62,718 nucleotides of DNA from contig DASWHD010000093.1 in NCBI GenBank assembly GCA_036393335.1, forward strand, positions 1 to 62,718, written 5' to 3'. Shown here one piece after another: positions 11,601 through 33,775 of the stretch (its first letter is position 1; each line of letters begins with the position of its first letter). Position numbers and translations under genes: made by a program. The notes below the pieces were generated by a model. It ran no database searches. It saw nothing but the letters and a program-made list of their open reading frames with translations, and was not told the origin of the DNA. This DNA comes from a bacterium (GTDB taxonomy: Bacteria > CG2-30-53-67 > CG2-30-70-394).

Positions 11601-11608
11601 GGCGTCTG

Positions 11609-13320: not shown

Positions 13321-13340
13321 GGGGGAAACGGTGGCTTGGC

Positions 13341-14787: not shown

Positions 14788-15015
14788 GTGATTACCCTCA
14801 AGGTCGTGGTCCTCGCGCTGGTCCATATCGCGCTGCTGGTCGTCATGGGCGGGACCCTGGTGAGCATCATGAGCAGCGACGTGAGGTTCACCGACGAAGC
14901 CGGTTTGACCTGGCACAAGGGCGCGGCTAGCCGGGCAGCGGTGAAGGCGACGATCTGTTTCCTCGCCTTCTGCGCCTACCTCTTCATGATCATCAACTTC
15001 AAGTTCGTCGGGTAG
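14788..15015 (+). CDS. Possible small two-helix membrane protein (75 aa, GTG start)
   Basis: Hydrophobic ORF preceded by GGAGG, lying between the sigma-54-like element and the FeS gene. No family recognised. Confidence 0.3.
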   Translation: MITLKVVVLALVHIALLVVMGGTLVSIMSSDVRFTDEAGLTWHKGAASRAAVKATICFLAFCAYLFMIINFKFVG

Positions 15016-15055
15016 CCGCGCCCCGGTACCGGCGGCCCCACCGGGAGTCAACCGC

Positions 15056-15706: not shown

Positions 15707-15707
15707 T

Positions 15708-15810
15708 GAGAGCCGTCAGCTTTCAGCGGTTAGCTGTCAGCTCGTGGAATCCCGAAATGAAAGACTTCCGATCAAGCTGACCGCTGAAGGCTGATCGCTG
15801 AGAGCTAACC
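15708..15810. repeat. Heptamer-periodic hairpin repeat ((NNTCAGC)x4 ... (GCTGANN)x5)
   Basis: Read directly. It fills the 105-nt gap between the FeS gene and the NrfD-like gene of one operon. Confidence 0.8.
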
Positions 15811-15811
15811 C

Positions 15812-16750: not shown

Positions 16751-16811
16751 CGGCCATCACCGAAGCGACCGGCAGAACGGTGGGGCGATCGTTGTGTAAG
16801 GAAACGTGGCG

Positions 16812-19121
16812 ATGAAATTGACGCGCAGGCAGCTCTTCAAATACTCCGCCCTGGGCGGTGCGTTGCTGGGGATGGAGCGCTCCTTCGACCACATGGCACG
16901 GGCCATGGAGCTGATCGAGGGGGGCAAGGAGGTCTCGCGCACCACGGGCAAGAACCTCAAGGCGATCCCGAGCACCTGCCTGCACTGCTACGCGCGCTGC
17001 GGCAACTTCGGCTTCACCGCCTATGGCGAGCTGCTCAAGATCGGTCCCAGCACCCAGCATCCGAATAGCCGGGGTCGTCTATGCGCCAAGGGACAGGCGG
17101 GGCTGAACCGGGTCTACGACCCGGATCGCCTGATGCTGCCGTTGAAACGCACGGGGCCGCGTGGCGAGGGCAAGTGGCGGCAGATCTCGTGGGAGGCGGC
17201 GTACCAGGAGGTGGCCGACCGTCTGAAGGCCCTGCGCCAGGCGGGCACGCCGGAGCGTTTCGTCTTCCAATCCGACCGCGACATCACCACCCAGCAGATC
17301 ACTCGCCGCTTCTGCCACGCCGTCGGCTCGCCCAACGCCCTGGTCAACCATCCGGTGGGCGGCCTCAACAAGAGCGTGGCCCAGCGGCTCACCTGGGGCG
17401 CGGATTGCGAGGTGCCGGACGTCGCCAACAGCCAGTACATCCTGATCTTCGGCTCCAATCCTTACGAGGCCCACTACCTGCGCACCAGCTTCGTGCAGCG
17501 CATCGCCGAGGCGCGCGGCGTGCGCCGCGCGGGGACCCTGCTCAAGCCCAAGGCGAAGATGGTGGTGTTCGACGTGCGCGTCACCCAGACTTCGGGGCGT
17601 GCCGACGAGTGGCACCCGATCCAGCCCGGCACCGACGGGGCCGTGGCCCTGGCGATGGCCCACGTGATCGTCGAGGAGGGGCTCTACGACGTGGAGTTCA
17701 TGGAGAACTGGACCAACTACCCGATCCGTTCCCTGCGTAACCACCTCCGCCAGTACACTCCCGAGTGGGCCGAGGGGATCAGCGGCGTGAAGGCCTCCGA
17801 TATCAAGCGCCTGGCGCGGGAGTTCGCCACGACCAAGCCGGCGACCACCGTCTCCACCGGGGGGGTGACCAAGCACGCCAATGGCGTCTATACCGAGCGC
17901 GCCGTGGCGCTGCTCAACGCCCTGACCGGGAATGTCGACGTGGAGGGTGGCTACTGTCTGCCGCGCAGCTTCGCACTAGCGGATCCGGAGCCGGTACCGC
18001 TGGTGCCGCGGGTGGCGAGCGAGCTCCTGCACCCGTCCGATTACCCCCTCGCCATGCACGAGGTGCCGTCGCGGGTGCTGCCCATGATCAAGGAAGGCCG
18101 GGCCAAGGTCGGCGTGTACATGACCTATCAGCACAACCCCGTGTACTCCCAGGCCGAGGGGCCGTCGTTGGCAAAGATCTTGGAGGACGAGGAGCTGATT
18201 CCGTACTTCGTCTGCCTCGACTCGGTGTACACCGAGACCGCCGCATACGCGGACCTGCTGCTGCCCGCCGCGACGTTCGCTGAACGCTGGGAGTTGGAGA
18301 GCCCGCCCGCCTTCGAGATGGTGCCGTTCGTCTCGTTACGCCAACCCCTCATCTTCCCCCTCGGCGAGGCGGTGGCAGTCACCGACGTGCTGATCAATCT
18401 CGCCGCGCGCCTCGGGGACGATGTGCACCGCTACTTCGACTTCACCACCCGCGAGTATCTGGAGGCACAGCTTGCCGGCGTGCCCGGCATCGAGCAGGCG
18501 GGGGGGCTGCACCACCTGATCGAGAAGGGGTTCTGGTTCGACCAGGCCGCCCAGCCGGAGTACCGCAGCTATCAGAGGCGCGGTTTCGCCACCCCCTCCG
18601 GCAAGTTCGAGATCTATTCCGGACGGATGGAGGAGGCCGGTTACTCGCCCCTGCCGGTCTATCAGCAGCTCCCGGTGGTGGAGAACCTGGAGGAAGAGGA
18701 GTTCACCCTCGTCACCTACCAGAGTCGGGTGCACACCCATGATCGCACCGCCAACTGCATGTGGCTCTCGGAGATCGACCATAACAACCCGGCGTTCATC
18801 AACACCGCCACCCTGGAGCGGCTGGGGATCGCCGATGGCAGCGAGGTGGTGCTCGCGTCCCGCGTCGGGCGGGTCCGGACCAAGGTCAAGGCGATCCAGG
18901 GGATCCACCCCAAGGTGATCGCCGTTAGCGACAACATGGGTCACTGGGAGCTTGGCCGTGTCGCCCAGGCCGTGCGCTTCGAGAGCGACGTGAAGACCAC
19001 CAAGTTGCTGTGGTGGGAGGAGCACGGGATACACCCCATGCCGATCATCGCCCTCAAGCAGGACCCGATCGGCGGCGGCGAGGCGTTGATGGATACCAAG
19101 GTCTGGATTCGCCGGGCATAA
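16812..19121 (+). CDS. Tat-exported molybdopterin (bis-MGD) oxidoreductase catalytic subunit, PsrA/PhsA/TtrA-like
   Basis: Twin-arginine signal MKLTRRQLFKYSALGG. N-terminal FeS motif CLHCYARCG...CAKG. About 770 aa with a molybdopterin-oxidoreductase layout. ATG 16812 is preceded by AAGGAA. Confidence 0.88.
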   Translation: MKLTRRQLFKYSALGGALLGMERSFDHMARAMELIEGGKEVSRTTGKNLKAIPSTCLHCYARCGNFGFTAYGELLKIGPSTQHPNSRGRLCAKGQAGLNRVYDPDRLMLPLKRTGPRGEGKWRQISWEAAYQEVADRLKALRQAGTPERFVFQSDRDITTQQITRRFCHAVGSPNALVNHPVGGLNKSVAQRLTWGADCEVPDVANSQYILIFGSNPYEAHYLRTSFVQRIAEARGVRRAGTLLKPKAKMVVFDVRVTQTSGRADEWHPIQPGTDGAVALAMAHVIVEEGLYDVEFMENWTNYPIRSLRNHLRQYTPEWAEGISGVKASDIKRLAREFATTKPATTVSTGGVTKHANGVYTERAVALLNALTGNVDVEGGYCLPRSFALADPEPVPLVPRVASELLHPSDYPLAMHEVPSRVLPMIKEGRAKVGVYMTYQHNPVYSQAEGPSLAKILEDEELIPYFVCLDSVYTETAAYADLLLPAATFAERWELESPPAFEMVPFVSLRQPLIFPLGEAVAVTDVLINLAARLGDDVHRYFDFTTREYLEAQLAGVPGIEQAGGLHHLIEKGFWFDQAAQPEYRSYQRRGFATPSGKFEIYSGRMEEAGYSPLPVYQQLPVVENLEEEEFTLVTYQSRVHTHDRTANCMWLSEIDHNNPAFINTATLERLGIADGSEVVLASRVGRVRTKVKAIQGIHPKVIAVSDNMGHWELGRVAQAVRFESDVKTTKLLWWEEHGIHPMPIIALKQDPIGGGEALMDTKVWIRRA

Positions 19122-19130
19122 GGTGGCGAT

Positions 19131-20309
19131 ATGATCCGCATCCCCAAGATACGGCTGAAGTACTTCCTGATCGCGCTGCCCTTCATCGTGTCGATTCCGA
19201 GCGTCTTCGTGTTGGCGCTGGAGCGCTTCACCACCTCCGACCAGCGCTTCTGCCTCACCTGCCATTACCAGATGTGGGGCAAGGACTTTCTCGTCGACTC
19301 GAAGGTCCACCCGCCGGAGGTACGGTGTCCCGAGTGCCACGCGACGGAGCACGTCCCGTTCTTACCACCCAAGGATTTCGCCTCCGACCCGAGTCGGGTC
19401 AACGTCAACTGCATGCGCTGCCACGGGGAGATGGTCGAGCGGTCAGACGTGGAGGGCTTCAAGTACAACGTGATGAAGATCCAGTTCCCCCACAAGCTAC
19501 ACCTCCAGGAGGTGGGGGCCCTGTGTACCGACTGCCACTACAACGTGAAGCACGACAAGCACATCCCCCAGACCAACCGGCCGCGGATGGTGGCGTGCTT
19601 CGAGTGCCACGATCAGGAGACGACGAGCTGCCTGAAGTGCCATCCCAAGGGCGAGCACCTGCTGCTCAGCCTGCTACCGCGCCACGAAACGATCGCCAAG
19701 CCGGTGTGCGAACAGTGTCACGAGGGTTTCGAGGACCGTGTGCAGGTGGAGTACGGCATCCGTTTCAAGCATGCCAAGCACCTGGAAAACGGCATCGCCT
19801 GCGGGACCTGTCACGAGAACAAGAACCAGCATGGGGTCATCACCAAGCAACGCAGCGAGTGTATGGCCTGCCATCACGGCGATGAGGCCCGCGCCTGCAC
19901 TGACTGCCACGCCACGCAGGTGGCGATGCGCTCCGGCAAGCTCCTGGGCATCCCCGGCGAACCTGACGTCATGGCGGCCGATGTCGAGTGCGACGTATGC
20001 CACGCGGAAGTGCGTGAGGGACACGACCCGCAGGCGATCCGCCAGACTTGCGCCGATTGCCACGAGGATGCCGTTCTCGCCAAGCTGGACGAGATCCAAC
20101 GGCGGGTGAGCGCCGAGCTGGCACGGATCGGCGGCCGGTTCGACGTCCTCCAGGATGGCCATTCGGCCGGCGTGGTGGTGGCCGGGGAGATCCTCGATGA
20201 CCTGCGCGGCGATGGCAGCCGTGGCTTCCACAACGCCAAGTACGCCGACATCCTGTTGCAGCGCGCGGATGAGCTGATCTCGGCGGAGGGGCGCGCCGAG
20301 GTCAAGTGA
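19131..20309 (+). CDS. Membrane-anchored dodecahaem c-type cytochrome with a NapC/NirT-like N-terminus
   Basis: 12 CXXCH motifs. N-terminal TM helix followed by FCLTCH...VH...CPECH, as in NapC/NirT/CymA-type quinol dehydrogenases. Confidence 0.85.
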   Translation: MIRIPKIRLKYFLIALPFIVSIPSVFVLALERFTTSDQRFCLTCHYQMWGKDFLVDSKVHPPEVRCPECHATEHVPFLPPKDFASDPSRVNVNCMRCHGEMVERSDVEGFKYNVMKIQFPHKLHLQEVGALCTDCHYNVKHDKHIPQTNRPRMVACFECHDQETTSCLKCHPKGEHLLLSLLPRHETIAKPVCEQCHEGFEDRVQVEYGIRFKHAKHLENGIACGTCHENKNQHGVITKQRSECMACHHGDEARACTDCHATQVAMRSGKLLGIPGEPDVMAADVECDVCHAEVREGHDPQAIRQTCADCHEDAVLAKLDEIQRRVSAELARIGGRFDVLQDGHSAGVVVAGEILDDLRGDGSRGFHNAKYADILLQRADELISAEGRAEVK

Positions 20310-21222: not shown

Positions 21223-22392
21223 CTACGGCGTGTGGCACTTGCGACAGACGCGCTCGTTGGTGCGGTTGAAGGTGGAGTCAAACCCCGGTGGGTGGGGGTT
21301 GATGCCAAGCCCGCCGGCACCCGCATCGGCGTGACAGTTAATGCACACCGGCCGGCTGCCCTCGTGACAGCCGGCGCATTGCACGATGTTGCGGCGGATG
21401 GCGGCGATGCCCGCGGGCGAGGTGTCGTGGAAGCCCCCGGTGACCGACACCAGCGGATGATTACCACCCCACGGGTCCGGCCCTCCTTGCACCCAGCGCA
21501 CGCCAGACCGGCCGTGGCAGTCGGTGCAGGTGTTGACGCGGTGGCAGCCCAGACATTGCTGCACGTCGCGACTGGCATCGATGGGGTGGTGGCTGACGTA
21601 GTCTCCGCGGTGAATGAAGTGACGATCGGTGCGCCGGGGCCACTTGACCTCCGGCTTCACCTGATTGTCCACGCCGTTATGACAGTCGGCACAGAAGTCT
21701 TCCTGGTGGCATTGGGCGCAGGCGGTGGGATCTTGCTGCTCGGAGTGGAGCTGGTGGTTGCGCAGCCAGTCGCCGCGATGGGAGAAGTGGGCGAGCTCGG
21801 GTCTATAGCGCGGATCGCTGAGGTCGGAGTGGCACTTGGCGCAGTGCAGTTGGTCGTAATCCTCCTGATGGCAGGTCATGCACGGCGCCATCGTGGGCAG
21901 CTTCTCATCGTGGACGTGCGCCGCCTTGAGGACCCGGTCGTGGCAGACGTGGCAGTCCTCGTCCACCCGTGGCACGTGATCTTGGTGGGAGAAGATCAGC
22001 GGGTGGTCGTAGCGCACCGGCTTGGGCGGTGCTTCCTTGCGCTTGGCTTCCTCCAGGGTCTCCGCATCTCGGTGACACACCCCGCAATCCTTGTCGGCGA
22101 TCTGCTGCTCATGACACTGCTCGCACACCTCCATGGTCGGCAGGTCGCGGGTGTGCTCGTCGGCGCTGCTCTCGATCCCGCCGTGGCACTCACGGCACGG
22201 GATCTCGTTGTCCACCGCGTGGAGCTTGTGGCTAAAGTTGAAGTGCTCGGGGGGCTGGCGAAAGATGTGCAGGCAGGCGGCGAGGCCGGCGAGCAACGCT
22301 ACCGCGACAAACACTTGCAGGGCACGCACCGTCGGCGAGGAGATCGACATCTCCCGGGCCCCCGGGGGGGAGGTGGTATGTGGGGCGTTCAT
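21223..22392 (-). CDS. 13-haem c-type cytochrome, probable lipoprotein
   Basis: 13 CXXCH motifs. Hydrophobic N-terminus ending in the lipobox-like LAAC. ATG 22392 is preceded by AGGAG. Starts 31 nt after the barrel gene's stop. Confidence 0.85.
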   Translation of the reverse strand: MNAPHTTSPPGAREMSISSPTVRALQVFVAVALLAGLAACLHIFRQPPEHFNFSHKLHAVDNEIPCRECHGGIESSADEHTRDLPTMEVCEQCHEQQIADKDCGVCHRDAETLEEAKRKEAPPKPVRYDHPLIFSHQDHVPRVDEDCHVCHDRVLKAAHVHDEKLPTMAPCMTCHQEDYDQLHCAKCHSDLSDPRYRPELAHFSHRGDWLRNHQLHSEQQDPTACAQCHQEDFCADCHNGVDNQVKPEVKWPRRTDRHFIHRGDYVSHHPIDASRDVQQCLGCHRVNTCTDCHGRSGVRWVQGGPDPWGGNHPLVSVTGGFHDTSPAGIAAIRRNIVQCAGCHEGSRPVCINCHADAGAGGLGINPHPPGFDSTFNRTNERVCRKCHTP

Positions 22393-22423
22393 CTCCGTGA
22401 CTCCTGTGACCGGGAGGGGGGGG

Positions 22424-23746
22424 CTAGAAGTTGTACACCAGCTTGACGGTGGCATCGACGTCTTGGCGGAAGCCGAGATCCGACTCCCGCGTGCTCGGTA
22501 CCCGGATCTCGCTGCCGCCGGCGGTAACCGTGGTGTAGTCCCGATAGTCGGGGCGCGTGCCGTAGTCGAGGCTGCCGGTGAGCTGCCAGTGATCGCCGAT
22601 GTCCGCCCCTAGGGTGGCCGTCGTGCTGTACGTGTAGTGCTGACGGTCCCCGGGGAAGATCGGGTCGTCGAAGTGGTAGAGGATGAAGTCGAGGCCGTAG
22701 AACAGCCTGGTGAGGTCCGAGCGGCTGGTGACCCATGGGTTATCGAAGGTGTAGCGCCCGTAGAGGTGGGTCCGCTTCGACTCCGGCCAATTCTCGAAGG
22801 CGGCGCCGACCTCGTTGCGCAACCCCTTGCCCCACCGGTAGTGGCCCTCGGCCCCTTCGGTCCAGTCGTCGTCGCCGTCGCTGTAGTCGTAGCGGCGCGC
22901 GTCGGCGGACAGGGTCCAGTGTCTGTCGACCCGGTAGTCGGCGCGCAGGCCGAGCTCCCGCTGCTTGTCGTCGGAGAAGATCAGATTACCGAAGATCGAC
23001 GTGTGGCTCAGGAAGAGGTTGGGGATCACCTGACCGTAGTCGGCCGAGAACAGCAGTTTGGCGGTCGCCTCCCAGGTAAGGAGGAACTGGTAGTCGAACC
23101 ACTCCTCCGAGATACGGTCCCAGAAGCCGTGGGCGTTGACCGCGACCTTGTCGATGACCTGGGCCCAGCCGTCCAGCCCGAGGCGTGCGAAGCCGGTCTG
23201 ATCGTCGTCCCGCGTCTCCATCGCGGAGGCGCCCACCTCGAAGCGCGGCTGGCGGGTGTAGAGCCGGCCGCCCCACTCCAGGTCCCCGGACCGGCCCCCG
23301 ATGTCGTCATTCACCTGCCGGCCGGCATACGCCTGGAAGCCGATGCGGTACTGGCTCAGCCAGTCACCATACACGCCGTCGAGGTACTCGCTGGCGACGC
23401 CGGCGCGGACGAATTGCCGCCCCGCGCGCACGAAGAGGTTCCGCTCCCGGTCCCGCCACTGGAGGTAGGCGTAGGTCAGCTCCCCGTCGACGTTGTGGTC
23501 GTAGGTCTGGTCACGCAGGTCGACCTTGCCGAAGCCGTCGAGATGAAAGCTCAGCGCTTCATTTCCCAGGTCGTAGGCATTCAGCGAGACAAACTGGAAG
23601 AGTGGGATCTGCTCCGTGTTGCCGTCGACGTCGAACCGCTCCTGGGTGTAGGCCAGGGTGGTAAGCCGCCCCCGTAGCTCGGCGGAGTGGGCCGAGCCGC
23701 CGATGAGGACCGCGCAGCAAGCCACGACCAAGGCACGCGTCGCCAT
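22424..23746 (-). CDS. Outer-membrane beta-barrel (porin-like) protein, 440 aa
   Basis: Cleavable signal (MATRALVVACCAVLIGGSAHSA). Alternating hydrophobic/aromatic strand pattern rich in Y, G, D and R. C-terminal ...VKLVYNF ending in Phe. No CXXCH motif. Confidence 0.65.
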   Translation of the reverse strand: MATRALVVACCAVLIGGSAHSAELRGRLTTLAYTQERFDVDGNTEQIPLFQFVSLNAYDLGNEALSFHLDGFGKVDLRDQTYDHNVDGELTYAYLQWRDRERNLFVRAGRQFVRAGVASEYLDGVYGDWLSQYRIGFQAYAGRQVNDDIGGRSGDLEWGGRLYTRQPRFEVGASAMETRDDDQTGFARLGLDGWAQVIDKVAVNAHGFWDRISEEWFDYQFLLTWEATAKLLFSADYGQVIPNLFLSHTSIFGNLIFSDDKQRELGLRADYRVDRHWTLSADARRYDYSDGDDDWTEGAEGHYRWGKGLRNEVGAAFENWPESKRTHLYGRYTFDNPWVTSRSDLTRLFYGLDFILYHFDDPIFPGDRQHYTYSTTATLGADIGDHWQLTGSLDYGTRPDYRDYTTVTAGGSEIRVPSTRESDLGFRQDVDATVKLVYNF

Positions 23747-24080
23747 GGGGAACTCCTTGAGGGATGGGGTCGGTTAACGTGGGACGGAGCGGTGGCTGGG
23801 GACACCGAGGTAGGAAACTTCGCACCTCCCAAAGCGAAGGCCGCTCCGCCAACCTGGAGCAATAGCCCACGACAATCTCGCGCCACACTTAACCCGATCC
23901 TCAGTGGCGAGGTCAAGGTCGTGACCGTACTTCGGAGCTCGGCCCCCCTGCGGGCACCTCATCACCGTGAGGCCGCCGATGGCACTGGGCCGGCAACACT
24001 GGACGCCGGCCGCAACGACGTGGCTATAAGGCGCGACAACTCTCCCCAAGCGGTATTCCCGTGCCAGGACCGGGGAGGTT

Positions 24081-25031
24081 CTACTGCGCCAGTGAGACCT
24101 TCAGGTGGGGTAGGTAGAAGGGCTCGGGTGAGAGCGGCTCGTGACAGTTGCCGCAGGTCTCCTCGATCTCCGCAACGGTGAACCGCCAGTGGTGGGCCCT
24201 GTGGCAGTCAGTGCAATTTCCCACCGCATCCAGGTGGAGGGCATGGACCTCGTGCTCGCCGATCGGCTTGTGGCAGCCCAGACAAACCTCCGGCTTGGGC
24301 TTGGTGAGTTCCGGATCGTGCGGCTTGTGACAGACCGTGCATTGCAGGTGCATCAACTCTTGTTGTTCGTCCGGGTCTGGCCCGAACTGCTGGTGGCAGG
24401 CGAGGCAGGTGCGGCGGTCCGGTTTGATGTCGCGGGTCTTGTCCGTGTGGCAGCTCAGACAGCGCACCACCGGCTCACCCGCGACGCTGCCGTGTAGATA
24501 GTCGACCTGCCCTTCGTGGCAATTCAGGCACAGGTCCATGGCCGGTGGAAATACATGGAGGCTCTGGCCGGCGTGGCACTGGGCACACTCGATCTCCTGG
24601 ACATACACGTGCAACGCGTGCCCCATGGATTGGTTGATCTTCGGGGCGTTGGGGTAGTCGGGATTCTTGCGCCAGTGGCACTTGACGCAGTACTCGAAGG
24701 GTACATTCACCGTCCCCTTGGTCTTTACGTAGGGATCGGTGACCTTCTCCGGTGCGAGGAAGATGGTCTGGAGCAGCATCTTGTTTTTTGCGGCGGTGGT
24801 GGCGTGGTGGCACTCGTGGCAGTTGATCCCCCGGTGCACGCTCTGCTTCCACGCCTCGAATGCACTCTCCATCACGTGGCACTGATTGCAGAAGGTCGGA
24901 TCGTTCTCCATGTAGTCCTGCGCGAAGTAGTTGGCCGTGAGACCCACCCCACCCGAGGCGAGCAAGATGACCACCAGGAGCAGCGGGCGGCGGGCGAGAA
25001 ACAGCCACGCATACCGCACGAATCTCAGCAT
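24081..25031 (-). CDS. Membrane-anchored undecahaem c-type cytochrome with a NapC/NirT-like N-terminus
   Basis: 11 CXXCH motifs. N-terminal TM helix followed by FCNQCH...SVH...CHECH. Confidence 0.85.
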   Translation of the reverse strand: MLRFVRYAWLFLARRPLLLVVILLASGGVGLTANYFAQDYMENDPTFCNQCHVMESAFEAWKQSVHRGINCHECHHATTAAKNKMLLQTIFLAPEKVTDPYVKTKGTVNVPFEYCVKCHWRKNPDYPNAPKINQSMGHALHVYVQEIECAQCHAGQSLHVFPPAMDLCLNCHEGQVDYLHGSVAGEPVVRCLSCHTDKTRDIKPDRRTCLACHQQFGPDPDEQQELMHLQCTVCHKPHDPELTKPKPEVCLGCHKPIGEHEVHALHLDAVGNCTDCHRAHHWRFTVAEIEETCGNCHEPLSPEPFYLPHLKVSLAQ

Positions 25032-25270: not shown

Positions 25271-25312
25271 GGGAAGAGAAAATGGCCGCCCGGTCATGAT
25301 CGGGCGGCCATT
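25271..25312 (-). terminator. Rho-independent terminator candidate
   Basis: Perfect 12-bp stem AATGGCCGCCCG / CGGGCGGCCATT with an 8-nt loop. On the minus strand it is followed by a U-rich tail (TTTTCTCTT). About 100 nt downstream of the stop at 25415. Confidence 0.5.
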
Positions 25313-25414: not shown

Positions 25415-25954
25415 CTATTGCGCGCGACCGCTCAATAGGCTCCCGGCGAGCACCAGCAGCTCTTCGGATGACGATCGCATCTGTATGTCGATCCAGAGAT
25501 CTCCCTCCATGAAGGTGATTTTGCTGCACGGCTCGCCATCGTCGCAGAATCCGCTCTCGACGACCGATTCCCGCCCCTTCAGGTTGACCGACGAAGCCTG
25601 CCTGACGCGCTTGAGGCGGATCTGTGGCCGCTGCTGCAACCGTCGAGACGACGTCTGGGTGATAACCAGCGCGACCTCCTGAGAATCCACGCGATGGAAC
25701 TCCATGACCACCGCAGCAAAGGGTTTGCTCTGCGCCAGCACGCGTGATGGAGGCCACACGAGCGTCTTCGGGAAATAGGCCGGCACGTAGATCTTTGCGA
25801 TCCCGAGCGTTGCCTGAGCCTCGGCGATGCTGGCATAGCGACGGACTGTCCCCGGTTGAAAAGCGCCCGGAAGCCAGTCGATGAGCTTCAGGGCGACGAT
25901 CAGCACAACGGTAAAAAAAAGGAAGGTCGGAAGCGAAATGGCATGCCGGCGCAT
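25415..25954 (-). CDS. Hypothetical membrane-anchored protein (179 aa)
   Basis: N-terminal TM helix. Starts 22 nt downstream of the M56-like peptidase gene. Lies in the lower-GC patch. No family recognised. Confidence 0.5.
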   Translation of the reverse strand: MRRHAISLPTFLFFTVVLIVALKLIDWLPGAFQPGTVRRYASIAEAQATLGIAKIYVPAYFPKTLVWPPSRVLAQSKPFAAVVMEFHRVDSQEVALVITQTSSRRLQQRPQIRLKRVRQASSVNLKGRESVVESGFCDDGEPCSKITFMEGDLWIDIQMRSSSEELLVLAGSLLSGRAQ

Positions 25955-25975
25955 GACACCTCCAAGCAGGCGGTT

Positions 25976-27007
25976 TCACATCACGTAATAGTTGATAGCA
26001 AGGATCACCACCACCACGATGACCCAGACCAATGGCCATTCTCCTTCACGTTCGTTATCGACGTGCCGGAGGCGCCTGATCCTTTCCGCAATGTGTAGCC
26101 TATGGCTGTGTGCTTCGAGTGCCGATCGTAGATCGGAAAGTCGTTCTACGTGAAATGATTCGGGCACTTCGTGCTCCTGAAGGAGCCTCTGTAACGCCAC
26201 GGCGAGGGCCTCGGGCTTCTTGGTCCACGAGACCGCGACATCGTCGCAGATATCCTCCTCCGCATGGACAATCTTGCGAAACTCGATCAGAGTGATCGGA
26301 TTGAAGAACATAAGGACTCGGAGAAGAAATAGCATCACCAGCGCAGAGCTCTGGCTCCTCCTGATATGTGCTAGCTCGTGCGTGATGGCCGCTTGCAGCT
26401 CGTCGTGAGTCAGCAGTGCTTGGATCCCTCGGGATACGTAGATCGTTGCTCCCGATCCCGTCGTGGAAAAGATCAATGGCTCGTCGGCCTCGAGCAGTGC
26501 GATGTGTGGTTTCTCACCAGGTATCCCCTGTAACACATCGCTCATGACGCTGCCTTCCACTGGGGAAATCCGTCGGTATCCGGCCGTGGCCGATCCGAGC
26601 AGGTGGCGCACGATCGGAATCAGCTCCTGGACAAAAAAAATCACTGCCGTGAAGGCCAGCAGTAGGAAAAACAACGCATAGAGTGGGACGCCCTGACAGA
26701 GATCGAGGTATAGCCAGTCGTCGGTATTCAAGAGGGCGTCGAGGCGGGATGACATCGTTCCGCGGTGGGGGTCGATGAGCTGGTAGGCTGGGAAGGCAAG
26801 AACCGGGAGGAGGATCACGAGCGTCCGGAGTCGCTGCTGAACGATGGGCTGGTCGATCCCCCACGCCCGCAGGGCGCTCTCCACCACGATCGCGGCGGTC
26901 AAGGAGTGACACACCGACTGAATCAGGTATCTTCCGGGCAGGGTGAGGAGGAGATCGGAGAGGGACATTTTCTTTTCCGGATTCTCAGGAGGCCGCTGGG
27001 TTGCCAT
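25976..27007 (-). CDS. M56/M48-type (BlaR1-like) membrane zinc metallopeptidase
   Basis: Several TM helices and a HELAH (HEXXH) zinc motif in the BlaR1-like context ...LQAAITHELAHIRR. Confidence 0.72.
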   Translation of the reverse strand: MATQRPPENPEKKMSLSDLLLTLPGRYLIQSVCHSLTAAIVVESALRAWGIDQPIVQQRLRTLVILLPVLAFPAYQLIDPHRGTMSSRLDALLNTDDWLYLDLCQGVPLYALFFLLLAFTAVIFFVQELIPIVRHLLGSATAGYRRISPVEGSVMSDVLQGIPGEKPHIALLEADEPLIFSTTGSGATIYVSRGIQALLTHDELQAAITHELAHIRRSQSSALVMLFLLRVLMFFNPITLIEFRKIVHAEEDICDDVAVSWTKKPEALAVALQRLLQEHEVPESFHVERLSDLRSALEAHSHRLHIAERIRRLRHVDNEREGEWPLVWVIVVVVILAINYYVM

Positions 27008-27357: not shown

Positions 27358-29193
27358 ATGCAAAAACGGATCATGCTCATCGTCGTCATGAGCATGCTTA
27401 TCATATTTGTCGGCCTCGGTGTGGTCAGCTATCTCAGCGTACGCCTCAGTATCAAGAGCTCGTTAGATGCGCGTCTAACCCTCGCAGAAATCATCAGCGA
27501 ATATTTCGATCATGTGGTCGAAAGCAACCTTACCAGGCTCTACGACATGTCGATCACTGGTAAGTTCGATCTGCGAGACAACGACTCGGATCCAGAGTTG
27601 AGCGCTGTTAGAACGGCATACGAGTACTCCATATTCACCGATGGAATCTTTGTGCTCGATCGTCGCGGTACGCTGATTCTCGGCTATCCCTATCGGGAGG
27701 AGCCAGGGCTCAGCTTCCTGAGCATGCCGTACGTGAGCCGGGCCATCGCGGAGGGGAAGCCGGTCATCTCGGACGTCTACACGGAGGAAATGACGCGGAA
27801 AAAGTTGATCTATGCGTTGGTTCCTTTGCGGGACAAGGACGGGGAGACCATCGGACTCGCAGGGGGCGAGATCAGTCCGACCAACTATGCGTTTTCCCGG
27901 GTCATCCAGGCGATACCTCTGCAGCCGTCGCGCCTCATCGAACTGATCGACAGTCACGGCATCGTCATCGCGTCGAGTGATGCCCGCCGGGTCCTTACCC
28001 GCACGGATCACAACGAGTTCCTCGGCAATCTGATCCATCAGAAGAAGAGTATCGTTGGTACGTGCCATCGCTGTCACGAGGAGGAAGCGACGGGAGCGCA
28101 TCGGACGGAAGATACGCTCGCCTTCGCGCCCCTGTCTTTAGCGCCGTGGGGAGTTGCAGTCCGCGAGCGACGGGCGATCGTCTTCGCGCCATCGACCGAC
28201 CTGAAGATGTGGTTCGCCATCCTCGGTCTCATATCGCTGGCCACGGCGTTGTTGCTGTCCATCGGGCTGAGCCGCAGCATCGTACGTCCCGTACGGGAGC
28301 TCGCCTGGGCGACCAAGAGGATCGGGGAGGGCAATCTTTCGCAGCCAGTCGCGGTGGAGAGCACGGACGAACTCGGATCGCTTGCGCGTAGCGTCGACGA
28401 GATGAGGGTCAGACTGGCCGACTCCCTGCAGAGTATCCAGCGCCAGAACTTGGTGCTCGAACAGCGGGTCGCCGAGCGGACACGGGACTTGGCAGCGAGC
28501 CGCGAGAAGCTTTGCCAGTTGCTCAAGAGGGTATTCACGGCGGAGGAAGAGGAGCGAAAGCGGGTCGCCAGGGAGCTCCACGACGACACGAGTCAGGCGC
28601 TGAACGGCATCCTGATGTCACTCGATGCGGTGCGGTTCGCCGTCTCTCCGGACGACCCAGTGCAGGTGCGCCTCGCCACGATCCGGGAACACAGTCTGGC
28701 GACCCTGCAGGGACTCCATCGGTTGATTCGGGACCTTCGTCCGCCGGTGCTCGACGATCTCGGGCTCGAGTCGGCGATCCGCTGGGTTCTGGAGAGCCGC
28801 CTCCGGGACCGGGGTATCGACTACGGCCTGGAGGTGGATGCCAGCTGGCAAGAACACGCGGCCCGCTCGGACCTGGGCCTGGGGCGCGCAGAGCTCGAGG
28901 TACTGCTGTTCCGTGTCATTCAGGAAGCGGTTACCAACATCGTCAAACACGCGCACGCGACGCACGTGCGGGTGACCCTTCGTCTGGAGGGTGCTCTCTG
29001 GGTACTGCGAATCCAGGATGACGGTGTTGGATTTGATACGGATAGCCTGGCCCGCGATGCCGGCGACGGCGCGGACCTGGCCGGTTACGGAATCCTTGGT
29101 ATGCAGGAGCGCGTGGCACTCGTCGATGGCGAGATGACCATCCGATCGGGCCCCGGAGCGGGGACAGAGATCACGGTCGTGGTGCCGGTTTAG
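27358..29193 (+). CDS. Sensor histidine kinase (periplasmic Cache-like domain with a CXXCH motif, HAMP, HisKA_3, HATPase)
   Basis: Two TM helices bracket a domain of about 255 aa that contains CHRCH (nt 28063-28077). H-box ELHDDTSQAL is typical of NarX/DegS-type HisKA_3 kinases. C-terminal ATPase boxes are present. Confidence 0.85.
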   Translation: MQKRIMLIVVMSMLIIFVGLGVVSYLSVRLSIKSSLDARLTLAEIISEYFDHVVESNLTRLYDMSITGKFDLRDNDSDPELSAVRTAYEYSIFTDGIFVLDRRGTLILGYPYREEPGLSFLSMPYVSRAIAEGKPVISDVYTEEMTRKKLIYALVPLRDKDGETIGLAGGEISPTNYAFSRVIQAIPLQPSRLIELIDSHGIVIASSDARRVLTRTDHNEFLGNLIHQKKSIVGTCHRCHEEEATGAHRTEDTLAFAPLSLAPWGVAVRERRAIVFAPSTDLKMWFAILGLISLATALLLSIGLSRSIVRPVRELAWATKRIGEGNLSQPVAVESTDELGSLARSVDEMRVRLADSLQSIQRQNLVLEQRVAERTRDLAASREKLCQLLKRVFTAEEEERKRVARELHDDTSQALNGILMSLDAVRFAVSPDDPVQVRLATIREHSLATLQGLHRLIRDLRPPVLDDLGLESAIRWVLESRLRDRGIDYGLEVDASWQEHAARSDLGLGRAELEVLLFRVIQEAVTNIVKHAHATHVRVTLRLEGALWVLRIQDDGVGFDTDSLARDAGDGADLAGYGILGMQERVALVDGEMTIRSGPGAGTEITVVVPV

Positions 29194-29469
29194 CCCGAAT
29201 CGATTCCCGTCCCTCGGCTGCGCTCGCGCCATCGGCGCACGTCTGATGGACCTGTCCTCGACGCGGGCCAGCAGCGAGAGGCCGGGGACGAGGAGTGACC
29301 GTCAGCCCGTGGGCTGGTCTCTGCAGCGCTTCCTTACCATGGCGCGACCCGTCCCTCTCCCCTGCCCAGTGTGCCTGCGGGCATGGCCTTACGAGCCGGC
29401 CATGGCGGCCGGCTGGTGCTCACGGCGAGTCGCGGTCACGATGCGGGCGACTGTGAAGCGGGAGCCGCA

Positions 29470-30111
29470 ATGATCAAGATCCTTATCGCGGACGACCACG
29501 CCCTGGTCAGGGAGGGCATCATCGCCCTGTTGAGTCCCCATAATCAGATTCAGATCGTCGGCACCGCCGCCAGCGGGCAGGAGGCAATCGAAAAGGCGGG
29601 CAAGCTCCACCCGGACATCATCCTGATGGACATCGCCATGCCCGGACTGGGGGGGCTCGAGGCGACGCTCGAGATCCGCAAGACACACCCAGAAATCAAG
29701 ATCCTGGTCCTCAGCCAGTACGACGACAAAGAGTACGTCAGTCGTCTGTTCAAGGCGGGGGTCTCAGGTTACATCCTGAAACATGCGGTAGGCACCGATC
29801 TAGTCTCCGCCATCCGCGCCGTATACCGCGGGGAGTGTTACCTCTATCCGGCGATCGCCGCGGGGGTCGTCGATGGCTACCTCGGCCGCAGCACGATCGA
29901 CGTCGACGACCCTTACGAGAGCCTGAGCGACCGCGAAAAACAGGTGCTCAAGCTGATCGCGGAGGGGTGCAGCCATAAGGAGATCGCGACATTGCTCGAT
30001 ATCAGCGCCAAAACCGTAATGGCGCACCAGACCAATCTCTCCGAGAAGCTGGGCCTCCGATCGCGTGCGGCGCTCATCCGATTCGCCATCCACAAGGGCA
30101 TCGTCAAATAG
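29470..30111 (+). CDS. NarL/FixJ-family response regulator (REC + LuxR-type HTH)
   Basis: MIKILIADDH...DIILMDIAMPG receiver motifs and a C-terminal LSDREKQVLKLIAEGCSHKEIA HTH. Start moved to ATG 29470. Confidence 0.9.
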   Translation: MIKILIADDHALVREGIIALLSPHNQIQIVGTAASGQEAIEKAGKLHPDIILMDIAMPGLGGLEATLEIRKTHPEIKILVLSQYDDKEYVSRLFKAGVSGYILKHAVGTDLVSAIRAVYRGECYLYPAIAAGVVDGYLGRSTIDVDDPYESLSDREKQVLKLIAEGCSHKEIATLLDISAKTVMAHQTNLSEKLGLRSRAALIRFAIHKGIVK

Positions 30112-30123: not shown

Positions 30124-30888
30124 TCAACCCTGCGGAAGGTGCGGCGGCTCGTCATCCACGGTGGCGTGACCGCTGTCGTGGTGGGCGCCGAGGAGCTCTG
30201 TGAGGGATTTCCCTTCGATCCGTGCGAGCTCGACGGGGTGCTCGTGGAGCATCCGCTTGCGGGAAATCTTGCCGGTGAAGATCACCGTGTCGATCGGGAA
30301 GACCTCGGGACTGAAGACGGCGTTGTAGATGTGCCAGACGACGATGACCAGCAACGCGAGGAGTGCCTCGTTGGTGTGAAGGGCCTTGGCGATCGGGATG
30401 ACCTCGCCGGGCAGGAAGCGGACGACGAGGGTCGGAAACCACAGGGACAGGCCGGTTCCCGCCATCAGCATGCTGCCGATCACCACCCCCCAGTACTCGA
30501 ACTTCTGCTTGTAGTCATAACGGTCGCACAGGGCCGCATGGTTGGTAAGACCAAGGTAGTACTCGAGGTTGTCAATGACGTCCGCGAAGTCCTTCTTGTG
30601 GATGATCATGGTCGGCTGCCACCGCCGGACCAGGACGCCGTATACGGCGGTCAAGACGTGCACCGAGGTCAAGATGATGAGGGCGAAACCGGTGATACGG
30701 TGGATGATCCGAACGGAGTCGATTCCTCCGAGAATCTCGATCAGCCACTGGGATGTCGCGGCGTCATGGAACTTCTGCGATAGGCCGGTCACGACCAACA
30801 CCACGAACACCGTGGCGTTCAACCAATGCTCGGTGATGCGCAGCGGCCCGAGCCGCCGGAGATAGGTGGTGTTGTTTGTCCGGTTCAC
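30124..30888 (-). CDS. Dihaem b-type cytochrome, FdnI/HydC/PhsC family membrane subunit
   Basis: Four or more TM helices with conserved His positions (ITEHWLNA, IHRITGF, HTNEALLAL, WHIYNAVF). Immediately downstream of a 13-haem cytochrome gene. Confidence 0.78.
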   Translation of the reverse strand: MNRTNNTTYLRRLGPLRITEHWLNATVFVVLVVTGLSQKFHDAATSQWLIEILGGIDSVRIIHRITGFALIILTSVHVLTAVYGVLVRRWQPTMIIHKKDFADVIDNLEYYLGLTNHAALCDRYDYKQKFEYWGVVIGSMLMAGTGLSLWFPTLVVRFLPGEVIPIAKALHTNEALLALLVIVVWHIYNAVFSPEVFPIDTVIFTGKISRKRMLHEHPVELARIEGKSLTELLGAHHDSGHATVDDEPPHLPQG

Positions 30889-30901
30889 GGTTCCTCCCCG
30901 G

Positions 30902-32281
30902 TCATCTGTTGATGGCGTACCGCCAGATGTGGAGCAGAATCTGAAGCCCCAGCCCGATGACCATGAACGGAATGAAGATCTTGTAGGCCAGGTTTACCAG
31001 GAACACGCCCGGTGCCTTGTCGAAGCTCGCCTCGTAGTGAGAGACCCAGCTATCGGGGAAGTTGGCCGTGGCATCGGGATGGCATTTCTGGCAACGCTTG
31101 ACAAGGTTCGCCTTGACTGCCGGTGATCCGGGAGCGGTGATCTTTGCGATGTCGTGGATGCCGTGGCAGTCGGTGCAGGTCGCGATCGGACGCAGGTCCC
31201 CCTCTTTCTTGTAGAAGCGGAGGGTGACGCCGTGGAAGTCCTGGACATAGCTCTCCACCACTTGTGTGGAGAGGCCGTACTTTCCGGCGATGCGGCTATT
31301 GGAGTGACAGTTCCCGCAGATCTCCGGGATCGTGAGGTGGAACTCGGCGGTTGTCGGGTCCGGGATGTCGTGAGCGCGATGGCAGTCGGAACACACCGGC
31401 ACATCCTCGTTGTGCTCCGAGAGCATTGCGGCGCCATGGACACTCTCTTTGTACACCACGTAGATGTCCTCATGGCATTGCGCGCAACGCCGGGCGTTCA
31501 CCACCTTCTCCAGGCGTCCCGTCGCGATGGCATGGGCACCGTGGCAATCCACGCACACGGGGGCATCCTGGCGCCCCGAAGAGAGCAGCTCGTAATGGAT
31601 ACTCTCTAGAGTGCGGGTGTATTTGTCGAAGTGGCATCGCCGGCACGTCTCCGCTGACGCCAACGTATGGTCCCGCGGCGAGCGAAAGCTCCGCTCCGGG
31701 TGTTCCTTGGCGGTGAAGCCGAAGTGACAATCGCGACAGCTCAGACGTTGATGGACGGAGTTGGCGAGATCCGCGGGGTTCATCTGCAGGGAGATCCGGC
31801 TGCCATCCCGCGTCGCCAGGTGCAGGGGTTGGCCGTGGCAACCGATACAGTAGAGCGTGTCGTGGAATGCGACGGCGACCGGTTGCACGGCGTGCGCGGT
31901 GTGGCAGTCAGTGCACACCACACGCCTACCCTCCTGTTCCAACAGGGTCCGGTGGATGCCCTGGAATTCGGAGTGGCAGCTTTCGCAAACCCGTGACCAG
32001 AACTGCGAGTGCGCGCTCCGGTCGGGGAACACCTGCGTGGGATGGTCGTCCCCGGTGAAGGACGTATGGCAATCCTGACAGTCCAGGGTGGCGTGGACCG
32101 ACCCTTCAAGCTGGTGGCGATCGACAAAGAGGGAGAGTGTCGCGCCGTTCGCGAACGCGGTGCTCAGGTCGTCGCTGCCATGGCAATCGAGGCACTGATC
32201 CGCCGCGGATGCATATCCGCCGCTGACCAACGCCCAGAGGCTGAGACTCAGTGCCGTGAGGATGATCTTGGGATGCTTCAC
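30902..32281 (-). CDS. 13-haem c-type cytochrome with a C-terminal membrane helix
   Basis: 13 CXXCH motifs. Signal peptide after GTG 32281, which is preceded by GGGAGGG. C-terminal helix FIPFMVIGLGLQILLHIW. The longer ORF to 32368 starts inside MITE copy D. Confidence 0.85.
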   Translation of the reverse strand: MKHPKIILTALSLSLWALVSGGYASAADQCLDCHGSDDLSTAFANGATLSLFVDRHQLEGSVHATLDCQDCHTSFTGDDHPTQVFPDRSAHSQFWSRVCESCHSEFQGIHRTLLEQEGRRVVCTDCHTAHAVQPVAVAFHDTLYCIGCHGQPLHLATRDGSRISLQMNPADLANSVHQRLSCRDCHFGFTAKEHPERSFRSPRDHTLASAETCRRCHFDKYTRTLESIHYELLSSGRQDAPVCVDCHGAHAIATGRLEKVVNARRCAQCHEDIYVVYKESVHGAAMLSEHNEDVPVCSDCHRAHDIPDPTTAEFHLTIPEICGNCHSNSRIAGKYGLSTQVVESYVQDFHGVTLRFYKKEGDLRPIATCTDCHGIHDIAKITAPGSPAVKANLVKRCQKCHPDATANFPDSWVSHYEASFDKAPGVFLVNLAYKIFIPFMVIGLGLQILLHIWRYAINR

Positions 32282-32357
32282 GGAGCTCCCTCCCTGTCGT
32301 TTCCGGCCGCGAGGAGGCTCGCGCACCGCGGCTTCGGGTCTGACACCGCGGTGCGCC

Positions 32358-32619
32358 TTAGCCCGCATTTCTCCCCCGGGATCGTCGCGAGCCCGCGCCC
32401 GGGCATGGGGCCAGGTGAAGCTGGCCGCCCATGGCCTGGCCGTAGATTCTGGCCGGCACTTGGTAGGAGCCGAATCCCTTCGGCGACCCGGCCCGCAGGG
32501 CCTGCCGCGCGGATGGTGCGGGTCGCCGCTGCCACCGGCTCCTACCCTCGACGAGGTGGGCCAGGAGATGCGGGCAGTTGCGCGGGCGCGGCAGAGTCAT
32601 GGTGAGAAATGCGAGCTAG
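32358..32619. mobile_element. MITE-like palindromic repeat, copy D (262 bp, inverted orientation)
   Basis: TTAG-CCCGCATTTCTC ... TGGTGAGAAATGCGAG-CTAG with an enlarged central GTAGGAGCCG/CGGCTCCTAC hairpin. Confidence 0.85.
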
Positions 32620-32644
32620 CTCCCGCTGTCTGGCGCGGTCGCCG

Positions 32645-32986
32645 TCAATTCCGTTTCCCCGTGGGCTTCTTGCCGGTGAGATAGGCCATGCTCGGGTGCC
32701 ATCGGAAGCCGGCCTCCCTGGCGAGATGTGCGCCCAGGGCGGTCAGCAGCTTAGAGGTGATCGTATGGGCGATCATGGCGAACCCGATGAAGGGAAGGAA
32801 GAGGACAAAAGCCAGGCCGAGGATCGGTCCCAGGAGGAGGAGGGCGGCAGGATGGACCTTAAGATAGGTCATCCGCTCGCCGGGGAGTATTTCGGTCGCT
32901 GCGTCGCAGTGGACCAACTCGCCGGTGGCGACGTTCCAATAGGCCCCTCGGGTTACGGCTTCGCCATTCTGGTAGATGAGCTTCAT
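32645..32986 (-). CDS. Small membrane protein, paralogue 1 (113 aa), unknown family
   Basis: ATG 32986 is preceded by GAGGGAGAA. Shares G.YW, LPG, YL.VHP, a central TM stretch and W.P..AYL.GK with the adjacent ORF. Confidence 0.6.
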   Translation of the reverse strand: MKLIYQNGEAVTRGAYWNVATGELVHCDAATEILPGERMTYLKVHPAALLLLGPILGLAFVLFLPFIGFAMIAHTITSKLLTALGAHLAREAGFRWHPSMAYLTGKKPTGKRN

Positions 32987-33045
32987 GATGGTTCTCCCTC
33001 TGTCGTGGTACGACACGGTGCTGGAAATGCGCGGAACCCGCGCGG

Positions 33046-33408
33046 TCAGTGTGATTCCTTGGGATTGGTGCCTTGCCCCTTGTCCTTCCGGCCTTTGCCG
33101 GCCAGGTACGCCTCATTGGGCCGCCACTCGAAGTAGGCGAGGGCGCCGAGCGAGTGGGCCAGCTCCCGCGCAATCCGCGTGAGGACGGCGGCGGCGGCAA
33201 AGACGATGGCGATCAGCGGCAAGGTCAGGAAATAGGCCAGGCCGATTGCCGGCGCGAGGAGGAACATCGCAACCGGGTGGACCCGTAGATACACCGTATC
33301 GTGAGCCCCGGGGAGGAGGTGCTCCCGACCGCCGTCGACCCACGACCCGTTTGCCGGAGCCCAGTAATGGCCCTTAGCGACGTGATTCCCACCTCTGAAG
33401 AACAACAT
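33046..33408 (-). CDS. Small membrane protein, paralogue 2 (120 aa), unknown family
   Basis: ATG 33408 is preceded by AAGGAGA. Collinear similarity to 32645..32986, roughly one third identical by eye. Confidence 0.6.
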   Translation of the reverse strand: MLFFRGGNHVAKGHYWAPANGSWVDGGREHLLPGAHDTVYLRVHPVAMFLLAPAIGLAYFLTLPLIAIVFAAAAVLTRIARELAHSLGALAYFEWRPNEAYLAGKGRKDKGQGTNPKESH

Positions 33409-33775
33409 GTCCGCTCTCCTTTTCATGGGGTACCCATTGCACCCCTGCTCTTACGGTTAAGTATCGCGGGGATCGCAAGGGCGACAATTGGGAGAAAGTC
33501 GTAATTGTGAGGGAAAAATGCCGTAAAGATGTCGGGTACACGGACGAACGCCGTGGGGGACGCCGGGCCATTCCCTGCGGATGGGTGCGCGGCCTGCCGG
33601 CGTTGGCCGGACAACGTTTCCGGCGCTACTCCACCGGGGGAACCGAACCTCCCGCAGCGCACCAGGCCGCGGCTTTTGCCCGGGTCTCCCGCCCCAGACG
33701 TAGTTGTTTCACCGCGCGTCGCGGCCGGCGGATCTCGTCACGCTCCACGCTCGGACGGCAACGTCCGACGGACTG

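Follow-up and report, generated by a model that had tools for sequence, protein, structure and literature searches.

What does a histidine kinase sense when its periplasmic domain carries a single c-type haem attachment motif, and which genes does it control? The question is raised by a sensor kinase gene and the response regulator gene behind it (positions 27358 to 30111) in a stretch of 62,718 nucleotides (nt), contig DASWHD010000093.1 of a bacterium of the GTDB lineage CG2-30-53-67; this whole stretch was analysed and is referred to here as the window. A preliminary description had proposed a redox- or ligand-sensing haem kinase that controls the flanking cytochrome operons. We consider it likely that the gene encodes a membrane-bound HisKA_3 kinase (NarX/LiaS type) with one covalent c-type haem in the membrane-proximal module of its Cache domain, which signals to a NarL-type regulator. 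The idea of a redox- or ligand-sensing haem kinase was strengthened by the periplasmic topology, the conservation of the motif, and the synteny with cytochrome genes, whereas the accompanying hint of a chimeric origin and one proposed target, the region at 14.2 to 14.7 kb, found no support.

The kinase gene (27358 to 29193, plus strand) is an open reading frame of 611 amino acids (aa) with the Pfam order TM1-dCache_1-TM2-HAMP-HisKA_3-HATPase_c, TM being a transmembrane helix. A Kyte-Doolittle scan yielded two hydrophobic segments, at approximately aa 4 to 30 and 282 to 305, and the AlphaFold model placed helices at aa 2 to 66 and 277 to 309. Both agree with the assignment made earlier of TM1 to approximately aa 5 to 28 (27370 to 27441, preceded by MQKR) and of TM2 to approximately aa 284 to 304 (28207 to 28269). 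Between the two helices lies the double-Cache domain (dCache_1, aa 41 to 268; 27478 to 28161), recognized by Pfam, AlphaFold, and Foldseek. Its match to PF02743 scored 54.0 bits against a cut-off of 45 and covered profile positions 13 to 239/240. The cytoplasmic part had been described as HAMP, HisKA_3, and HATPase, and Pfam matches bore this out: HAMP at aa 304 to 354 (28267 to 28419; 60.9 bits), the HisKA_3 dimerization and phospho-acceptor domain at aa 399 to 465 (28552 to 28752; 51 bits), and HATPase_c at aa 514 to 610 (28897 to 29187; 59 bits), all encoded on the plus strand. The phospho-acceptor is His408 in the H box ELHDD (28579 to 28581), and the N (NIVKHA), G1 (DDGVGF), and G2 (GYGILGM) boxes are intact. 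Since HAMP and the ATP-dependent kinase core, which are necessarily cytoplasmic, follow TM2, the stretch between TM1 and TM2 is periplasmic. Pfam order, hydropathy, and the AlphaFold model all place the haem motif on this side of the membrane and not in the cytoplasm. Every NCBIfam equivalog score of the kinase was far under its cut-off (for example, 131 versus 408 for UhpB). The sequence of the kinase region occurs in soil and sediment metagenomes.

The candidate attachment site is CHRCH at aa 236 to 240 (28063 to 28077, plus strand). It is the one CXXCH of the kinase, at the position reported before. The periplasmic stretch from aa 29 to 283 has no cysteines other than C236 and C239, and we roughly estimated the probability of one chance CXXCH in a 255-aa domain at less than 1e-3. 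A word-indexed homologue search with the sensor part returned 23 metagenomic fragments, nearly all of which kept CHRCH. To determine the size of the family, we searched 1.84 billion representative proteins exhaustively with a profile. This gave 290 clusters at E ≤ 1e-30 and 1,258 at E ≤ 1e-10, so that the family is taken to comprise at least 290 clusters at 50% identity. The best 150 members and the 23 fragments of the first search were aligned to the family profile, and C-x-x-C-H occupied the motif column in 116 of the 139 that could be classified. CHRCH (56 members), CHSCH (22), and CHGCH (11) were the commonest variants. Among the 116 motif-bearing members, C236, C239, and H240 were invariant and H237 was 98% conserved; the motif, whose conservation the preliminary description had left to be determined by alignment, was kept in orthologues down to 26 to 31% identity. 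At the level of genomes, C..CH was present in 60 of 82 loci.

Fifteen further loci, all of them "Deltaproteobacteria" or Candidatus (Ca.) Deferrimicrobia metagenome-assembled genomes (MAGs) with unchanged gene order, have CHRCK in place of CHRCH (L012 to L016, L020, L022 to L024, L026 to L028, L031, L032, and L034; in the sensor at approximately 8700 to 8715 where the gene starts at 8001). Save for a few single sequences (CHRCR, CHGCR, CRGCY), the terminal residue of the motif is His or Lys, and this restriction favours an iron ligand over a disulfide switch. CXXCK is the one established alternative haem c motif, in which Lys is the iron ligand, as in NrfA (cf. PMC12285233). NrfA is an enzyme and the window protein a sensor; it is in orthologues of the Ca. 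Deferrimicrobia type that CHRCK stands at the same position. In known systems, a dedicated lyase is required for haem to be attached to CXXCK, and the CHRCK of these sensor domains, which would be unusual, may need one as well.

Approximately 23 family members lack the motif cysteines and have a loop that is about 4 residues shorter; they make up two haem-less clades. Degenerate remnants of the motif (CSHGY, CRHGL, CHLAH, CHHSF, CMYNS) are scattered inside the motif-bearing clade and, judged by sequence, look like secondary losses. D217, I226, H237, and R269 covary with the motif, position 269 being Glu in haem-less members. A candidate distal haem ligand, His218 (28009 to 28011, plus strand), was found in a D-H motif before the helix at aa 219 to 228. 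The window encodes proteins with 13, 13, and 11 CXXCH motifs, which suggests that the host matures c-type cytochromes. No ccm or ccs gene was identified within the window, which does encode a tetratricopeptide repeat (TPR) protein with CcmH/CycH-type TPR matches and a thioredoxin-like protein. From the sequence and its conservation, we regard a covalent haem at CHRCH as very probable.

A Pfam scan of 64 motif-bearing family members matched dCache_1 in 59 and the kinase ATPase domain in 61. HisKA_3 was found in 48 and HisKA in 13, and 37 had an extra GAF domain. The top family members were all histidine kinases, with no stand-alone domain among them. Scanning one genome per GTDB species gave 80 loci, all in MAGs, from Nitrospirota (Thermodesulfovibrionales, Ca. 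Sulfobium), Ca. Deferrimicrobia, Chloroflexota, one Anaeromyxobacteraceae, and one Armatimonadota. The best-matching locus (L003, a Nitrospirota MAG) has a sensor 78% identical to that of the window and the same gene order.

Where the motif lies in the fold was read from the AlphaFold model, which was built on 13 family sequences and has a mean confidence (pLDDT) of 85.3. The long N-terminal helix is followed by a membrane-distal Cache module, with strands between approximately aa 96 and 172, and by a membrane-proximal module composed of β1 (193 to 198), β2 (202 to 206), a helix (219 to 228), β3 (232 to 237), β4 (251 to 258), and β5 (264 to 271). The proximal module runs directly into the TM2 helix. 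CHRCH begins in the last residues of β3 and continues into the β3-β4 loop. Confidence was very low only at aa 241 to 247, which is this loop, as would be expected if a cofactor is absent from the model. A Foldseek comparison with the PDB gave Mlp24, PctA/B/C, KinD, Tlp3, and rpHK1S-Z16 as the best matches (E of approximately 1e-12), with template-modelling scores of up to 0.77 for dCache structures, normalized to the target. The best 50 matches were nearly all dCache structures, and none of those listed is described as haem containing. KinD was also the best PDB match of the sensor by sequence (E = 3e-6).

The preliminary description had regarded haem c in periplasmic sensors as known from a few Geobacter proteins, a view that is out of date. 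In a 2026 preprint, sCache_heme (DUF3365/Tll0287-like, PF11845) was presented as the first Cache domain with a covalent cofactor; this single-Cache family of approximately 20,000 sequences, with GSU0582, GSU0935, and Tll0287 among its members, has its CXXCH in an insertion between β3 and β4, haem c was shown experimentally, and a member fused to signalling modules behaves as a nitric oxide (NO) sensor (PMC12889525). A follow-up preprint concerns a Cache_heme-HAMP receptor of P. azotoformans (bioRxiv 10.64898/2026.05.25.727664). Neither preprint mentions a double-Cache haem domain, and our literature searches found none.

The window kinase has in common with sCache_heme an extracytoplasmic Cache fold and a CXXCH between β3 and β4. 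Both families are joined through a TM helix and HAMP to outputs that include histidine kinases, and both are enriched in Nitrospirota and Desulfobacterota-like anaerobes. They differ in that the window kinase has two Cache modules (dCache_1) and carries the motif in the membrane-proximal one, that the motif stems from a loop change of approximately 4 residues relative to haem-less relatives and not from a helical insert, and that the first X is nearly always His. PF11845 was not matched at E ≤ 10 by the periplasmic domain of the window kinase or by its proximal module alone, nor at E ≤ 1e-5 in the 64 family members. A profile of the proximal module, compared with the PDB at E ≤ 10, found none of the sCache_heme structures 3B47, 3B42, and 5B82; its weak matches were ordinary c-type cytochromes at nonsignificant E values of 0.46 and 1.4. 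Membership of the window kinase in sCache_heme was rejected because there was no profile match and the domain has two Cache modules, not one. The kinase is therefore a dCache_1 member that resembles sCache_heme in the position of its motif and not in its sequence.

Among other sensors, the dCache_1 proteins PctA, Mlp24/Mlp37, Tlp3, KinD, and rpHK1S-Z16 have the fold of the window domain. Unlike what we propose for the window kinase, they contain no cofactor, and their small-molecule ligands mostly occupy the distal module. Another kind of sensor with periplasmic c-type haem is DcrA of Desulfovibrio vulgaris, a chemoreceptor for which a role in sensing redox potential or oxygen has been proposed (cited in PMC8396549). 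Its output is a methyl-accepting chemoreceptor and not a kinase. The motif of DcrA is presumably CHHCH, with His likewise at the first X. Twelve signal transducers of G. sulfurreducens have haem c motifs, and 8 of them are two-component proteins (PMC8396549).

The gene behind the kinase (29470 to 30111, plus strand) encodes a NarL/FixJ-type response regulator with REC and GerE domains (Pfam Response_reg, 95 bits; GerE, 70 bits) and with Asp54 (29629 to 29631) within LMDIAMP. It did not reach NCBIfam equivalog cut-offs (MctR, 189 versus 300; NarL, 147 versus 250) and is 61 to 89% identical across syntenic loci. Kinase and regulator belong to the same transmitter and regulator classes as NarX-NarL, UhpB-UhpA, LiaS-LiaR, and MctS-MctR, whose sensor domains are unrelated to that of the window kinase; that of NarX is a four-helix bundle. 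The distance of 276 nt between the two genes was found as reported earlier, the stop codon of the kinase ending at 29193 and the regulator starting with ATG at 29470 behind a GGGAG Shine-Dalgarno sequence. A GTG start at 29371 was rejected, given that homologues align from this ATG and that it has the Shine-Dalgarno sequence.

The spacer (29194 to 29469, plus strand) is unusual for the family. The aligned gap measures approximately 28 to 35 nt in most orthologues and approximately 280 nt only in the window and L003. Between these two, the spacer is conserved in the last 60 nt or so only (29410 to 29469 in the window, 10050 to 10111 in L003), reading …CTCACGGCGA..CGCGGTCACGATGCGGG.GAC… at its conserved end, and the rest has diverged. 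Retention of this end in L003 suggests a regulatory site for the regulator gene, and the length of the spacer would fit a separate promoter or operator. Rfam families had no match anywhere in the window, spacer included, and promoter and terminator scans returned consensus-level matches only.

Synteny was determined by tblastn with the neighbouring proteins of the window, and the counts given here refer to 52 closer loci. On the minus strand downstream of the regulator, the window encodes a dihaem cytochrome b of the FdnI/HydC type (30124 to 30888; Ni_hydr_CYTB, 56 bits; Pfam and NCBIfam) and a cytochrome c with 13 CXXCH motifs and a hydrophobic C-terminal tail as membrane anchor (30902 to 32368). 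These are followed on the same strand by two paralogous small membrane proteins of 123 and 126 aa (32645 to 33016 and 33046 to 33426) that matched neither Pfam nor NCBIfam. Proteins of this kind measure 116 to 130 aa across clusters, share the C-terminal motif F-x-W-R-P-x-E-A-Y-L-x-G-K-K, and occur in most syntenic clusters. On the other side of the kinase gene, and transcribed divergently from it, are genes for an M56/M48-type membrane metalloprotease of 343 aa and for p179, a protein of 179 aa (25415 to 27007, minus strand; Pfam and synteny). The protease carries the zinc motif HELAH, and p179 is of no assigned family. No BlaI-type repressor gene was seen beside these two genes in the window or in locus L002.

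Cytochrome b was encoded near the kinase in 45 of the 52 loci, in 43 of them directly upstream and on the same strand. The regulator was found in 45, the 13-haem cytochrome c in 41, p179 in 35, and the M56 protease in 30; loci without these neighbours are short contigs or have permuted arrangements. Five distant loci (Chloroflexota, Anaeromyxobacteraceae) also have cytochromes c and b directly upstream of the kinase. The gene order of L009, taken from sequence as the canonical order of the cluster, is M56 protease, p179, two small membrane proteins (1908 to 2258 and 2302 to 2694), a small cytochrome c3-like protein, an NrfC-like Fe-S protein, an NrfD-like membrane protein, the anchored 13-haem cytochrome c, the FdnI/HydC-like cytochrome b, kinase, and regulator. 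The window, L003, and L053 have the two cytochrome genes in inverted orientation behind the regulator. Two Nitrospirae MAGs (L008 and L017; 10544 to 12777) have the M56, p179, and small-protein genes after the regulator and not before the cytochromes. Canonical loci hold the NrfC/NrfD pair inside the kinase-linked cluster; in the window none lies between the small-protein and 13-haem cytochrome genes. One family protein, P0100 (910 aa), has a predicted cytochrome b (Ni_hydr_CYTB), 51% identical to that encoded at 30124 to 30888, fused to the N terminus of a haem-motif dCache kinase. It could be a true fusion or a read-through artefact of gene calling, and either way it reflects the adjacency of the two genes.

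The claim that the kinase controls the flanking cytochrome operons was supported in part. The pair is syntenic with cytochrome b and the 13-haem cytochrome c across phyla, and its conserved partners are the genes at 30124 to 33426 and 25415 to 27007. The upstream region at 14.2 to 14.7 kb, which had been put forward as a regulator target, is not a conserved partner, and nothing ties it to the regulator. A precedent for the arrangement comes from Geobacter, in which CbcBA and CbcL are inner-membrane quinol oxidoreductases whose use or expression is tied to redox potential (bioRxiv 10.1101/2021.04.15.440034; PMC9129911). The cbcBA operon is controlled by the response regulator BccR according to redox potential, and the sensor acting through BccR is left unnamed (bioRxiv 10.1101/2021.04.15.440034). 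Compared by published description, CbcBA and CbcL have the same design as the window pair, a dihaem b-type membrane cytochrome and a C-terminally anchored multihaem cytochrome c, and both systems are encoded beside a two-component regulator. The window cytochrome c has 13 haems versus 7 in CbcA and 9 in CbcL, and the window regulator is of the NarL type, unlike the σ54-dependent BccR.

We propose that C236 and C239 would be thioether bonded to the haem and that H240 would be the proximal iron ligand, with H218 at the start of the pocket helix as the likely sixth ligand in the window protein. Contacts to the haem would probably be made by R269 and D217, whose conservation is confined to motif-bearing members. 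The trigger would be a change in haem oxidation, for example by electron exchange with periplasmic cytochromes, or the binding of a small ligand such as NO. Either change may alter the proximal module, which feeds straight into TM2, and the signal would then pass via HAMP to autophosphorylation at H408 and phosphotransfer to D54 of the regulator. Likely targets would be the genes for cytochrome b and the 13-haem cytochrome c, a putative CbcBA/CbcL-like quinol oxidoreductase, for the two small membrane proteins, and the M56 operon. The haem is probably the primary signal input of the kinase. As to the signal, the chance that it is the periplasmic redox state appears about even. We favour redox because of the electron-transfer neighbours, the CbcBA precedent, and the likely bis-His haem in the window protein. 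That the signal is NO or another small ligand, by analogy with sCache_heme, is possible but rather unlikely.

Several observations weigh against this proposal. His218 is as conserved in haem-less relatives (approximately 91%) as in motif-bearing members (approximately 89%), gives way to R, Y, or Q in several clades that bear the motif, and is missing from the CHRCK loci, which have ER, DR, QQ, EQ, or KQ at that place; as far as the alignment goes, it is a candidate for the sixth ligand in the window protein only and not a family-wide requirement. A near-invariant His at the first X (C-H-x-C-H) is no general trait of haem c sites and could point to a metal site. The likeness to sCache_heme is topological only, because sequence similarity to PF11845 and its structures is absent. 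That the regulator controls the co-conserved cytochrome b/c module is a reading to which we lean on the strength of synteny. With a spacer of 276 nt, kinase and regulator may not be co-transcribed in the window. Lastly, the intergenic sequences of 37 syntenic loci, in which inverted repeats and 7-mers were roughly enumerated, gave no shared operator motif above shuffled controls, the exception being a few 7-mers common to approximately 6 probably related loci.

The His at the first X leads to the rival explanation that survives best, in which C-H-x-C-H is a Cys2His2-type site for a metal (Zn, Cu, or Fe) or a CXXC thiol-disulfide switch, and the kinase would sense metal availability or the periplasmic thiol redox state. 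The rival is kept alive because this residue, His in approximately 98% and unusual among haem c motifs, is left unexplained. It also draws on the two motif cysteines being the only ones in the periplasmic domain, on the presence of a metalloprotease in the cluster, and on the absence of similarity to known haem Cache domains. However, the terminal residue is His nearly throughout and Lys in one whole clade, a swap that is unexpected at a Cys2His2 site, and a disulfide would leave this residue unconstrained. The motif is also placed where sCache_heme holds its haem, and the gene lies among cytochrome c genes in a host that probably matures many such proteins. We regard a metal or thiol site as improbable.

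Also improbable, and by a shade the more so, is that the protein is an ordinary dCache sensor for which a small molecule in the distal module is the real signal, the haem, if there is one, being structural or modulatory. Characterized dCache_1 receptors usually bind their ligand in the distal module (PMC9303924). In the window kinase, this module folds well in the model, the positions G104, P111, P156, G162, and G166 in it are conserved, and haem-less relatives of the same architecture exist. These positions, however, are mostly structural Gly and Pro residues that are common to haem-less members, and no known ligand motif was recognized. The features that define the clade are all in the proximal module, and the synteny is with redox proteins and not with transporters or catabolic genes.

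Profiles of GC content at codon positions 1 and 2 (GC12) and position 3 (GC3), prepared for the window kinase and four orthologues, bear on the origin of the gene. The GC content of approximately 47% stated before for 27361 to 27420 was reproduced (46.7%), and the sensor half has 56.9%, the catalytic half 65.0%, and the whole window 66.4%. The low GC content of the sensor-coding part had led to the hint of a chimeric origin, taken here to mean a low-GC sensor part recently recombined onto a resident high-GC transmitter. It is true that the first 100 codons have 48 to 49% GC versus 59 to 67% after them and a GC3 of 0.65 versus 0.78 (Fisher P = 0.01). However, the dip is mainly one of codon positions 1 and 2 (0.39 to 0.42 versus 0.51 to 0.63), because it follows the amino acid composition of the TM helix and of an N-terminal helix in which Ile, Leu, Lys, and Ser abound. 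The same GC12 dip is present in orthologues whose genomes have 50%, 52%, and 63% GC, and it stops at approximately codon 100, within the sensor domain and at no domain boundary. Identities of the sensor and catalytic parts run parallel in all homologues (78 and 81% in L003, for example), and the same architecture is found in 48 to 63 of the 64 family members, depending on the domain. The lower GC3 of the first 100 codons is seen in L003 as well and is common to neighbouring genes: GC3 is 0.70 to 0.82 in the M56, p179, kinase, regulator, 13-haem cytochrome, and small-protein genes versus 0.83 to 0.94 in most of the window, and only the cytochrome b gene (0.86) is not lowered. A recent chimera is thus highly improbable; at most, the whole 25.4- to 33.4-kb cluster is compositionally atypical, which would fit horizontal acquisition or different expression.

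Other features of the window lie beside this cluster. Inverted repeats were looked for in five intergenic regions of the window. A loop-free, near-perfect palindrome of 32 nt at 25281 to 25312 (AATGGCCGCCCGGTCA / TGATCGGGCGGCCATT; 94% complementary) lies between the p179 gene and that of an 11-haem cytochrome and could be a terminator or a protein-binding site. Three genes on the minus strand at 21223 to 25031 resemble a porin-cytochrome conduit. They encode a 410-aa cytochrome with 13 CXXCH motifs, a 440-aa protein without a Pfam or NCBIfam match that ends in ...VKLVYNF and is a candidate outer-membrane β-barrel, and a 316-aa NrfH/NapC-like cytochrome with 11 CXXCH motifs. These genes are 87 to 90% identical in L003 and absent from the other related loci. 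At 10368 to 20309, the window encodes two complexes of the molybdopterin-oxidoreductase-family type. One (10368 to 14153, minus strand) consists of an NrfD-like protein, a 4Fe-4S protein, and a multihaem cytochrome, and the other (15056 to 20309, plus strand) of a 4Fe-4S protein, NrfD, a molybdopterin oxidoreductase, and a multihaem cytochrome.

No class of bacterial extracellular sensors is larger than that of the Cache domains, which were long seen as cofactor free. A double-Cache kinase family with a haem c motif in the proximal module is probably of a kind so far undescribed for double-Cache domains. It spans Nitrospirota, Ca. Deferrimicrobia, Chloroflexota, and others, and it includes haem-less states and the switch from His to Lys seen in CHRCK. 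Such a "dCache_haem" could be a second, independent origin of a covalent-haem Cache sensor and, at the same time, a dedicated redox-potential sensor that sets the expression of a CbcBA/CbcL-like quinol oxidoreductase, a combined claim that might fall either way. A dCache_1 kinase without a cofactor would then have become a haem-based sensor of redox state or gas through a short change of the β3-β4 loop in the proximal module, and the Cache superfamily would have acquired covalent haem on at least two occasions, both times at this structural position. A haem in the proximal module beside the TM helix would bear on how proximal modules signal, for which the haem-less relatives, the variants at position 218 (His, Arg, and Tyr), and the CXXCK clade would be natural comparison sets. 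If the proposal is true, the locus would provide a concrete candidate for a sensor, its regulator, and their targets through which uncultured bacteria of soils and sediments control extracellular or periplasmic electron transfer in response to redox conditions. It would also offer a candidate answer to how uncultured metal- or sulfur-respiring bacteria choose among inner-membrane electron-transfer routes.

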